In this document: positions 29,917-31,317 of the stretch, piece by piece
How positions within the stretch are numbered: position 1 is the first letter of the stretch
Layout of the letters: every line of letters starts with the position of its first letter
NCBI GenBank assembly: GCA_016290835.1
Contig: JAEEVG010000002.1
Coordinates: forward strand, 10,869 to 74,868
Origin: Bacteroidales bacterium
Lineage (GTDB): Bacteria > Bacteroidota > Bacteroidia > Bacteroidales > UBA932
Direction: 5' to 3'
DNA length: 64,000 bases
Made by a program: the position numbers and the translations under genes
The notes under the pieces: generated by a model
The model's database searches: none
Told to the model about the DNA's origin: nothing
What the model saw: the letters and a program-made list of their open reading frames with translations, nothing else

Positions 29917-31317
29917 TTATTTGAGAATGGAGGAGAGGGCGGCGCGGAATTCGGGCATCGGTGTCCCGGTGTCGCGCTCGATAATCAGGGTCTTGAGACC
30001 GGCAAAGGGGAGAATGTCGCGCTCGACGGCCTCCGGGTCGGCATCCGGCCCGAAATAGGCGGGCACGAAGGCATCCCAGAAAGCGCTGGAGGTGGTCTTC
30101 TCCATATGGAAATTCTCCAGGATGAACGCCTCGCTGCTCAGTTTGCAGGTCACATAGACCATGCCGAGATCGAAGAAGGGATGTCCATAAGAGAAATCTC
30201 CGAGATCGATGAAATAGAAATCGGACCCGGCGAAGATGGCGTTGCTGAAGTGCAGGTCCCCGTGGACGGCCGTGTCGGTGTCCGGGACCTGGCGGATGAA
30301 CGCCGCGATGCGATCTTTCTGATCCGGGGTGAAGAAAGGATTCTCGTCCAGCAGACGGAGATATCGGTTCTTGACAGATTCGAAGCGGGAAGTATCGACG
30401 CGGGTCGCGTGCAGCTCCTTGCACATTTGGGCGAAGCGGACGGCGTATTCTCCCACGCGGGCCGGGTCGTCCCCGATGGCGCGGGCGAAGGATTTCTTGC
30501 CGGGAATCCGGCGGAAACGGATGCCGAAGCGTTCCCCGTCGGTCACGAAGTCTCCGGGCTCGGGCGTGGAGATCCCGGCCTCGTAGACCTTGCGCGCTAC
30601 CTGCAGTTCGTCCCGGGCCTGCAACTGGATGCCCTTCTTGTAGAGCTTGAGCATCACGTCCGGGTCGGAAACGTGGATGTAGCTGCTTCCGTTGGCGCCC
30701 TCGCCGTCATGGATGTAGTCGGCGAGGTCGATCCGGACCGGCTGGCAGAATACCTCGTCGATCAGGCGGACGAACTCCTGGTAGGCAGCGGTGTGGGCGA
30801 GTTCGGAAAGCGAAGCCGCCAGGCCGCGGTAGTGCCATTCGTGCTCGCTGCGCTCCTTGACGTGGAAGAGGTTCCACAGGGCGTCGCCCTGCTCGGCGAA
30901 GTCCCGCGCGATGGCGCGCATATTGGACAATTTATCTCCCATCGCCACGATCTTGGCATCGTGGCCGGCCCGTGCGAGCCGGTCGATCGCCGCCTGTTTG
31001 CGGGCATGCCAGCTGGCCGAGGCGGGGAGGTGGTCCATAGCCTCGTCGCTCTCCGCGGCCACCAGATCCGCAATCCGGTCGCCGAACTCGCTGCGCAGCT
31101 GCCCGACGGTCACGGACGTGTCTTCCACGACATCGTGGAGCACGGCGGCGGAGAGGAGTTCCTGGTCGGGCGTGATGGTGGACACGATGGCGGCCGCCTC
31201 CATCGGATGGAGGATGTAGGGGAATCCTTTACCGCGCCGTTCTGTGCCGGCGTGGGCCTGCACGGCGAAGTGGATTGCCCGGTCCAGCAGACTTGTGTCC
31301 AGCGCAGCGTTAGGCAT
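29917..31317 (-). CDS. HD-domain small alarmone hydrolase (Mesh1/SpoT-like) fused to APH/choline-kinase-like phosphotransferase
   Basis: PYILHP, LHDVVEDT, GDKLSNMR; then GEGANGSSY, MLKLY, HGDLHFSN, FIDLGD. Confidence 0.82.
   Translation of the reverse strand: MPNAALDTSLLDRAIHFAVQAHAGTERRGKGFPYILHPMEAAAIVSTITPDQELLSAAVLHDVVEDTSVTVGQLRSEFGDRIADLVAAESDEAMDHLPASASWHARKQAAIDRLARAGHDAKIVAMGDKLSNMRAIARDFAEQGDALWNLFHVKERSEHEWHYRGLAASLSELAHTAAYQEFVRLIDEVFCQPVRIDLADYIHDGEGANGSSYIHVSDPDVMLKLYKKGIQLQARDELQVARKVYEAGISTPEPGDFVTDGERFGIRFRRIPGKKSFARAIGDDPARVGEYAVRFAQMCKELHATRVDTSRFESVKNRYLRLLDENPFFTPDQKDRIAAFIRQVPDTDTAVHGDLHFSNAIFAGSDFYFIDLGDFSYGHPFFDLGMVYVTCKLSSEAFILENFHMEKTTSSAFWDAFVPAYFGPDADPEAVERDILPFAGLKTLIIERDTGTPMPEFRAALSSILK

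Follow-up and report, generated by a model that had tools for sequence, protein, structure and literature searches.

An HD-kinase protein encoded with a small alarmone synthetase

The window analyzed here is a 64,000-nucleotide stretch of contig JAEEVG010000002.1 (assembly GCA_016290835.1) from a Bacteroidales bacterium of the UBA932 lineage. On its minus strand, an open reading frame (ORF) of 466 aa, here called HD-kinase, joins an HD domain of the small alarmone hydrolase (SAH) type to an APH-fold kinase domain, and is encoded in a five-gene operon that also contains a small alarmone synthetase (SAS) (Table 1). A preliminary description made from the sequence alone had proposed such a fusion of an HD domain (~190 aa) with an APH-like kinase, and profile searches located both parts within the one ORF: Pfam HD_4 (PF13328) matched aa 14 to 148 (E 6.9e-19, 68.5 bits versus a gathering cutoff of 27.2) and Pfam APH (PF01636) matched aa 216 to 404 (E 2.5e-19, 70.5 bits versus a cutoff of 23.2). 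The resemblance of the kinase to the NCBIfam family TIGR02172, which the same description had suggested, was borne out by a match of aa 196 to 421 over the whole model (positions 1 to 226 of 226; E 8.7e-70), with 235.1 bits against a curated cutoff of 228.2.

Table 1. Features of the HD-kinase locus, in coordinates of the window
Feature	Positions	Strand	Basis
HD-kinase fusion ORF, 466 aa	29917..31317	-	Pfam HD_4 and APH, TIGR02172, AlphaFold2 model
HD domain, small-alarmone-hydrolase type, aa 1-190	30748..31317	-	Invariant residues, sequence and fold matches
APH/ELK-fold kinase domain, TIGR02172 family, aa 191-466	29917..30747	-	Pfam, NCBIfam, alignment, Foldseek
Fusion junction '...EVFCQ/PVRIDL...'	30730..30765	-	Comparison with fused loci L001 and L002 and split loci L006, L015, and L016
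Small alarmone synthetase (SAS), 362 aa	31975..33063	-	Pfam RelA_SpoT, aa 52-175
STAS anti-sigma-antagonist-like protein, 102 aa	33063..33371	-	Pfam STAS (E 3.6e-18), TIGR00377
Cytidylate_kin2 (PF13189) P-loop protein, 218 aa	31317..31973	-	Pfam (E 7.8e-46)
Sensor protein, 692 aa, Cache-PP2C-HATPase_c_2	27832..29910	-	Pfam; NCBIfam SiaA/RsbW-like matches
Putative operon promoter region, upstream of STAS gene	33372..33500	-	Two sigma-70-like matches

Residue conservation in HD-kinase was assessed in an alignment of 29 homologues. Invariant positions of the HD domain were R27, H37-P38, H61-D62, E65-D66, and D128-K129-x-x-N132, whereas those of the kinase comprised the Gly loop (G205/G207), K224, E237, H352-G353-D354-x-x-x-x-N359, and D371-L-G, together with the C-lobe aromatic residues H404, W414, F417, and Y421. 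Every Mesh1/SAH and kinase motif claimed in the preliminary description was present and invariant. Judging from these residues, both active sites of HD-kinase are intact, and the HD domain is predicted to be an intact RSH-type alarmone hydrolase. The AlphaFold2 (AF2) model of the protein had a mean pLDDT of 90.4 and comprised two domains, each of them well folded.

The best solved relatives of the HD half by sequence were RelH-type SAHs, namely, Listeria Lmo0812 (4yf1), a Leptospira SAH (7qoe), and C. glutamicum RelH (7qoc), and also Mesh1. Foldseek aligned the HD half with 7qoc, 7qod (likewise C. glutamicum RelH), and 7qoe at target-normalized TM-scores of 0.83 to 0.88 and root mean square deviations of 1.5 to 2.9 Å, while the match to human Mesh1 was poorer (Mesh1-NADPH structure 5vxa; target-normalized TM-score, 0.77). 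The ppApp-specific hydrolase Aph1 (7smg) matched the HD domain only weakly and in part (E 5.5e-7, aa 8 to 88). With the RelH-type SAHs and Mesh1, the HD half has in common the HD_4 fold, the catalytic residues (R, H, HD, ED, and DK..N), and a size of ~190 aa. Known SAHs, however, are single-domain proteins, whereas the HD domain of the window is covalently joined to a kinase and that of its relatives is translationally coupled to one; with its fused kinase, the window protein falls outside a single-domain definition of an SAH. A parallel in organization is offered by the long RSH enzymes Rel and SpoT, in which an HD hydrolase likewise forms a single regulated unit with a phosphotransfer activity, and in which synthesis and hydrolysis need reciprocal control. 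Their second domain is a RelA_SpoT synthetase, which is a separate protein here, whereas that of HD-kinase is an APH-fold kinase; unlike Rel/SpoT, HD-kinase has no TGS or ACT domain.

For the kinase half, direct sequence searches against the PDB gave no match below E 0.8. The nearest structures in Foldseek were AmiN (6sui), APH(3')-Ia, the choline/ethanolamine-kinase-like protein 3dxq, and APH(2''), at 13 to 19% identity. In profile searches, 5-methylthioribose (MTR) kinase (2olc) scored best, albeit weakly (E 2e-4), followed by the kinase domain of ACAD11, macrolide 2'-phosphotransferase, YihE, and NahK. Because its nearest folds and profiles are AmiN, APH(3'), MTR kinase, and the like, the kinase half is assigned to the fold class of small-molecule kinases. 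A bilobal fold, an ATP-binding Lys-Glu pair, a catalytic HxDxxxxN loop, and a DxG metal site are common to it and to APH(3'), AmiN, MTR kinase, and choline kinase. However, the characterized APH-fold kinases are only 13 to 19% identical to the window kinase, which, unlike resistance or salvage kinases, is tied genomically to SAS, SAH, and STAS genes.

An alignment of SAS proteins showed invariant motif residues throughout the catalytic domain of the synthetase (R52, K54, S58, K62, D78, G81, R83, Y124, S126, H128, E152, Q154, R156, and H161). The AF2 model of the SAS (pLDDT, 85.9) was nearest to B. subtilis SAS1/SAS2 and S. aureus RelP (target-normalized TM-score, 0.66 to 0.77), in contrast to the tRNA-pyrophosphorylating CapRel, for which the target-normalized TM-score was ~0.4 and the sequence E-value 0.43. 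The catalytic fold and motifs are common to RelQ/RelP (SAS1/SAS2) and the window SAS; the latter differs in an extra C-terminal domain of ~150 aa and in being encoded with a hydrolase, a kinase, and a partner switch. This C-terminal domain is conserved and is a candidate regulatory module; fold matches of the SAS in the PDB were confined to the catalytic core. The SAS family yielded 7,515 matches, with identity still at 60% at rank 120 and at least ~50% across distant hosts. Residues 16 to 290 of the SAS also matched phrog_9640, a PHROG family of unassigned function (E 2e-57); in the phage collection, no record covered more than 61% of the SAS, and matching records were at most 36% identical.

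Fusion, fission, and operon context of the HD-kinase pair

A search of 5.8 billion proteins with HD-kinase returned 3,301 homologues. The best 120 of these were all ~470 aa in length and carried both Pfam domains, and they were named just "HD domain-containing protein" or "TIGR02172 family protein." Nine protein clusters at 76 to 93% identity were equal in length to the window HD-kinase. A fusion unique to one genome, which the preliminary description had named as grounds against its own reading, is excluded by the two-domain architecture of the best 120 homologues.

Gene arrangement was surveyed in one genome per species; 129 loci were returned, of which 80, from metagenome-assembled genomes of rumen and gut Bacteroidales and from Fibrobacter, were kept and subjected to ORF calling. 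The HD and kinase parts were fused in 8 of the 80 loci and were encoded by separate, adjacent genes, typically with a 4-nt overlap, in 63. Two further loci had separate genes in swapped order (kinase and then HD), and in the remaining 7 the HD gene had no adjacent kinase gene. The stand-alone HD orthologue, found in 63 of the 80 loci, was ~192 aa long. A one-off fusion is ruled out by the 3,301 homologues and the species-representative loci, and a universal fusion is ruled out as well, since ORF calling found two genes in most species representatives.

In the nearest split relatives (L006, L015, and L016; 71% identity), the HD gene ends in '...EVFKQ-stop' and is followed by a spacer of 10 to 25 nt and by a kinase gene that begins with 'ATG...PV(R/L)IDL'. 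The window and loci L001 and L002, in contrast, read through at this position as '...EVFCQPVRIDL', without stop codon, spacer, or start codon. This comparison indicates that a short deletion took out the stop codon, the spacer, and the start codon in the window lineage, and the window fusion is thus a recent, deletion-driven, in-frame, and lineage-specific join of two normally separate genes. In four independent metagenome runs belonging to three studies, contigs crossed the junction (aa 190/191, ~nt 30748) and had no indels there. An assembly artifact at this site is ruled out by these independent, indel-free contigs and by the nine protein clusters of equal length. Because fusion, fission, and swapping recurred across lineages, the distribution provides Rosetta-stone evidence that the two predicted enzymes work together. 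In some rumen Bacteroidales, extra HD and TIGR02172-like paralogues were encoded within a few kilobases of the main module (L054, 13881-16916, minus strand; L055, 5235-6059, plus strand), which points to local expansion of the family.

On the minus strand of the window, the gene order is STAS, SAS, Cytidylate_kin2, HD-kinase, and Cache-PP2C-HATPase_c_2, with overlaps or gaps of 1 to 6 nt. The protein encoded by the last gene has the layout of a sensor, with a PDC/Cache domain (aa 90 to 255), a membrane span, a SpoIIE/PP2C domain (aa 361 to 550; Pfam SpoIIE E 8.8e-53, and E 2.1e-22 for the PP2C domain against the SiaA model), and an RsbW-like HATPase_c_2 kinase domain (aa 566 to 690; Pfam E 5.7e-26). 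The STAS protein of the window carries the phospho-acceptor motif ISSSGL, and (I/T/V)SSxGLR was kept in every stand-alone STAS across the loci. Hence, the parts of a partner switch, namely, a PP2C, HATPase_c_2, and a STAS protein that has the phospho-acceptor Ser, are encoded together in the window; no sigma factor was found among the five operon genes. In the putative promoter region, a possible TAnnTTTG-type motif, TATCTTTG, was read by eye at positions 33412-33405. Rfam gave no match to a riboswitch or any further kind of RNA element at the operon, its only matches being three tRNAs. The metatranscriptome yielded a few short, near-identical contigs, one of which crossed the boundary between the cytidylate-kinase-like and HD-kinase genes, and these constitute weak evidence of transcription.

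A homologue of the SAS was present in 75 of the 80 loci; in 68 it was the immediate neighbor of the HD or kinase gene, usually within an operon of four to five genes with STAS and PP2C. STAS was found in 59 loci, PP2C in 61, HATPase_c_2 in 60, and a cytidylate-kinase-like gene in 8, either within the operon or close to it. The closest relatives carried the entire block in a syntenic ileS, dksA-like, and lspA context, and in other loci it lay among his, trmD, yidC, and lpxB genes. The conserved chromosomal core is made up of SAS, HD, and kinase, frequently wired to STAS, PP2C, and HATPase_c_2. The GC content of the five-gene block resembled that of its surroundings.

A putative alarmone circuit and its alternatives

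We propose that HD-kinase forms the "off" arm of an alarmone circuit that is encoded on the chromosome and controlled by a partner switch, a composite reading that we hold tentatively and to which we give slightly less than an even chance. Its parts differ in strength: that the HD domain opposes the SAS is quite probable, and a connection of the module to a partner switch is likely, while action of the kinase on a protein partner is plausible but falls a little short of being evenly balanced. In this circuit, the SAS would produce an alarmone of the (p)ppGpp type, from which the HD domain would strip the 3'-pyrophosphate, thereby resetting the signal. The kinase, which would be catalytically active, would act as an ATP-dependent control element of the "off" arm, most likely by binding or phosphorylating the STAS protein or, failing that, the C-terminal domain of the SAS. 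Its action would shut down synthesis while the product is being degraded, and the Cache-PP2C sensor would reverse it. The gene neighborhood suggests that either the SAS or HD-kinase would be the output of the partner switch. Within this scheme, we infer the identity of the alarmone, the target of the kinase, and the direction of regulation.

By analogy, the logic of the module resembles the control of a diguanylate cyclase by SiaABCD of P. aeruginosa, where a PP2C and a kinase set the phosphorylation of a small protein that activates the cyclase (PMC7647112, PMC8457831). There, as in the window, the synthase of a nucleotide second messenger is encoded alongside a PP2C, a kinase, and a small protein that is phosphorylated or, in the window, predicted to be. 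The window module differs in having an alarmone synthetase instead of a diguanylate cyclase and in the addition of a dedicated hydrolase and an APH-fold kinase.

The most informative clue to the role of the kinase, and one that the preliminary description lacks, is its link to STAS/PP2C partner switching. A search of 1.84 billion representative proteins with the kinase domain gave 2,022 relatives, 144 of them at E <= 1e-30. Although the best 150 were mostly stand-alone kinases of ~280 aa, they included 10 HD-[STAS-like]-APH proteins of ~560 aa and 1 protein combining 5-formyltetrahydrofolate (5-FTHF) cyclo-ligase, STAS, and APH. A further group of ~10 proteins among the best 150 was 365 to 400 aa long; 6 were sampled, and 5 had at least a weak STAS match, so that these are apparent STAS-APH forms. 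Prevotella-type loci encode a 401-aa protein, with 1,297 relatives, in which a canonical STAS is joined to an APH-fold kinase. The operon of this protein is ordered APH / Y_phosphatase3 / HD / SAS / STAS-APH / REC-PP2C and lacks HATPase_c_2. One HD-STAS-APH triple fusion was located between a SAS and a separate canonical STAS gene, and locus L083 comprised SAS / HD-APH / STAS with neither PP2C nor HATPase within 8 kb. At L080, a PP2C protein without a HATPase domain was encoded together with STAS, SAS, and a stand-alone kinase. Since L080 and L081 have PP2C and STAS without HATPase_c_2, an APH-fold kinase is the sole kinase in these clusters.

Two observations concern the surroundings of related kinases. 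The 566-aa protein P0387 (locus L085, 628-2328) consists of 5-FTHF cyclo-ligase followed by a cassette of a STAS-like domain and a TIGR02172-like kinase, which suggests that this cassette is portable and can serve various enzymes as a regulatory unit. At L081 (4356-6232), a stand-alone kinase 37.5% identical to the window kinase adjoins Y_phosphatase3 (PF13350) upstream of HD, SAS, and STAS-APH; the two may form a kinase and phosphatase pair.

Extended to the whole family, the proposal would be that TIGR02172-type APH-fold kinases are an unrecognized class of STAS-directed or STAS-regulated kinases that supplement or replace the RsbW type and that, with a dedicated SAS/SAH pair, constitute an alarmone circuit in which a partner switch and an environmental signal (Cache-PP2C) act as gates. 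Such a circuit would be a second, Rel-independent input into the stringent response of rumen and gut Bacteroidales and Fibrobacter. We regard this extension as speculative and rather doubtful. Several findings weigh against a partner-switch role for the kinase. All of the folds and sequences nearest to it belong to small-molecule kinases, and its catalytic motif, HxDxxxxN, is of the small-molecule class (Brenner type) and not HRDLKxxN. The STAS-like inserts of the HD-STAS-APH proteins have no phospho-Ser but F, Y, or H at this position, and the kinase in the canonical STAS-APH fusion is a divergent paralogue with only 24% identity to the window kinase. Moreover, SAS and HD-APH occur alone, with no STAS nearby, in L082 and in the Fibrobacter loci L011, L012, L014, and L019. 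The RsbW-like kinase domain of the window is apparently intact, so that a second STAS kinase looks redundant, and the pTM of the HD-kinase model (0.66) leaves the mutual orientation of the HD and kinase domains uncertain. A simple replacement of RsbW by the APH-fold kinase is untenable in the window, where all three boxes of HATPase_c_2 (N, G1, and G2) were recognized by eye.

The alternative that survives best, although we consider it somewhat improbable, is that the kinase is a small-molecule kinase in the nucleotide pathway of the HD domain and that its substrate is a hydroxyl group of the ribose or sugar type, carried by a nucleoside, a nucleotide, or a metabolite. The kinase and the HD domain, here together with the Cytidylate_kin2 protein, would then process the substrate or product of the SAS, and STAS would serve as a ligand-binding or docking module. 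All Foldseek and profile matches, with MTR kinase as the best by sequence, are consistent with this possibility, as are the Brenner-type motif and the invariant C-lobe aromatics H404, W414, F417, and Y421. It would also accommodate the minimal SAS and HD-APH modules without STAS, the STAS-like insert that is not phosphorylatable, and the recurrence of the Cytidylate_kin2 gene in or near the operon in a tenth of the loci (8 of 80). However, a small-molecule kinase leaves unexplained both the repeated direct fusions of kinase and STAS and the operons in which PP2C and a phosphorylatable STAS occur without an RsbW-type kinase, and no tool result pointed to a candidate substrate.

The preliminary description had further suggested that the HD domain is the antitoxin of the SAS. 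The pairing itself was recovered, with the SAS adjacent to HD or kinase in 68 of the 80 loci, but the framing of the SAS as a toxic synthetase (toxSAS) with a type IV antitoxin, in a toxin-antitoxin or anti-phage module, fits poorly with a RelQ/RelP-like fold and a nonmobile, five-gene operon, and we consider it unlikely. Synthetase genes beside an HD hydrolase able to degrade the product are known from the toxSAS-SAH toxin-antitoxin operon FaRel/ATfaRel (PMC7229694), in which the SAH ATfaRel is the antitoxin, and from the phage synthetase-hydrolase pair Apk2/Aph1 (PMC10083569), and the window locus, with its overlapping or abutting genes, shares this arrangement and would share with FaRel/ATfaRel the chemistry of a hydrolase that offsets a synthetase. 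In addition, the catalytic domain of the SAS, though no other part of it, weakly matched the PADLOC candidate PDC-S33, and the match to phrog_9640 points in the same direction. Against a toxin stand the greater proximity of the SAS to RelQ/RelP than to CapRel in TM-score, the presence of an environmental sensor phosphatase and a STAS protein in the operon, the housekeeping context (ileS, dksA-like, and lspA; elsewhere between his and trmD/yidC), and the level of SAS identity in distant hosts, in keeping with a conserved role in the cell. Unlike toxSAS-SAH operons, the window locus is neither bicistronic nor mobile, and toxSAS structures are not the nearest to its SAS. PHROG families were matched by the HD part only of HD-kinase, as well as by the SAS and the cytidylate-kinase-like protein (function-unassigned families). 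No phage or plasmid record covered 80% or more of the HD-kinase fusion, and PADLOC gave no match for HD-APH; on these two results, a mobile or defense element was rejected. Because of the number of genes in the operon, its sensor, its housekeeping surroundings, and a RelQ/RelP-like SAS without mobile-element association, we favor a regulated cellular signaling module over a toxin-antitoxin system.

Two remaining alternatives are highly improbable. An antibiotic-modifying APH (aminoglycoside, macrolide, or amicoumacin type), fused by chance to an unrelated hydrolase, would agree with the Pfam APH match and with AmiN and APH(3')-Ia as top Foldseek matches, but is contradicted by the low identity to AmiN/APH (13 to 19%), the separate curated family TIGR02172, the linkage to SAS, HD, and STAS across 80 loci that are not resistance contexts, and the absence from plasmid records. 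Equally remote is a bifunctional enzyme of an NADP(H) cycle with no relation to alarmones, in which the HD domain would be an NADPH (2'-phosphate) phosphatase like metazoan Mesh1 and the kinase would rephosphorylate NAD(H): regulatory enzymes commonly fuse opposing activities and 5vxa is among the fold matches (target-normalized TM-score, 0.77), yet RelH-type bacterial SAHs are closer than Mesh1, and the intact SAS that is adjacent in nearly all loci speaks for an alarmone as the substrate.

Relation to described systems and minor features of the locus

In Bacteroidales, control of (p)ppGpp is known mainly via long enzymes of the Rel/SpoT type. In the literature library searched, no paper named TIGR02172 and none linked an anti-sigma antagonist with an alarmone synthetase operon. 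Surveys of RSH proteins (PMC3153485, PMC7229694) do not describe the fusion; the entries given there for Fibrobacteres include a Mesh1-L hydrolase and unplaced ones of the divRel type. We found no published description of the HD-kinase module, the sequences of which are public under generic names. Its parts are all of known kinds, whereas their combination and the STAS-linked APH-fold kinase are new.

If the proposed circuit is correct, dominant members of rumen and gut communities would possess a separately regulated synthetase/hydrolase pair with extracellular sensor input. The circuit would likewise give TIGR02172, a curated family for which we found no literature, its first functional context, and partner switching would come to include alarmone metabolism and perhaps a new kinase fold. 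These hypotheses are directly testable on natural versions of the same parts, which occur fused, split, swapped, and with inserted STAS, and cultivable carriers probably exist, because related loci were assigned to Fibrobacter succinogenes and Prevotella-like genomes.

Some features of the locus lie outside these considerations. The Cytidylate_kin2 protein sits between the SAS and HD-kinase genes in the window lineage only and is encoded nearby in a few others; its P-loop reads GSGGRS and not GxxGxGK[ST], and the protein matches phrog_29548 (E 6.7e-34). Genes for tRNA-Ser with the anticodons tga and cga flank the five-gene operon at 27696-27781 (minus strand) and 33624-33709 (plus strand). ARAGORN additionally predicted a 94-nt tRNA-Gly(tcc) at 31168-31261 on the plus strand, i.e., antisense within the HD-coding region, which found no confirmation at the Rfam gathering threshold and is probably a false positive.

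Approximately 0.9 kb past the end of the operon, between ileS and lspA, a 132-aa ORF (26536-26934, plus strand) resembles, as judged by eye, a protein of the DksA/TraR type. It is syntenic in close relatives, at 95 to 98% identity, and because of this synteny it is probably a housekeeping gene outside the module. On the other side of the operon, a 166-aa ORF (35038-35538, plus strand) contains, as read by eye, two motifs that typify LuxS (S-ribosylhomocysteine lyase), HSLEH and GPMGC, and is 90% identical in L006.

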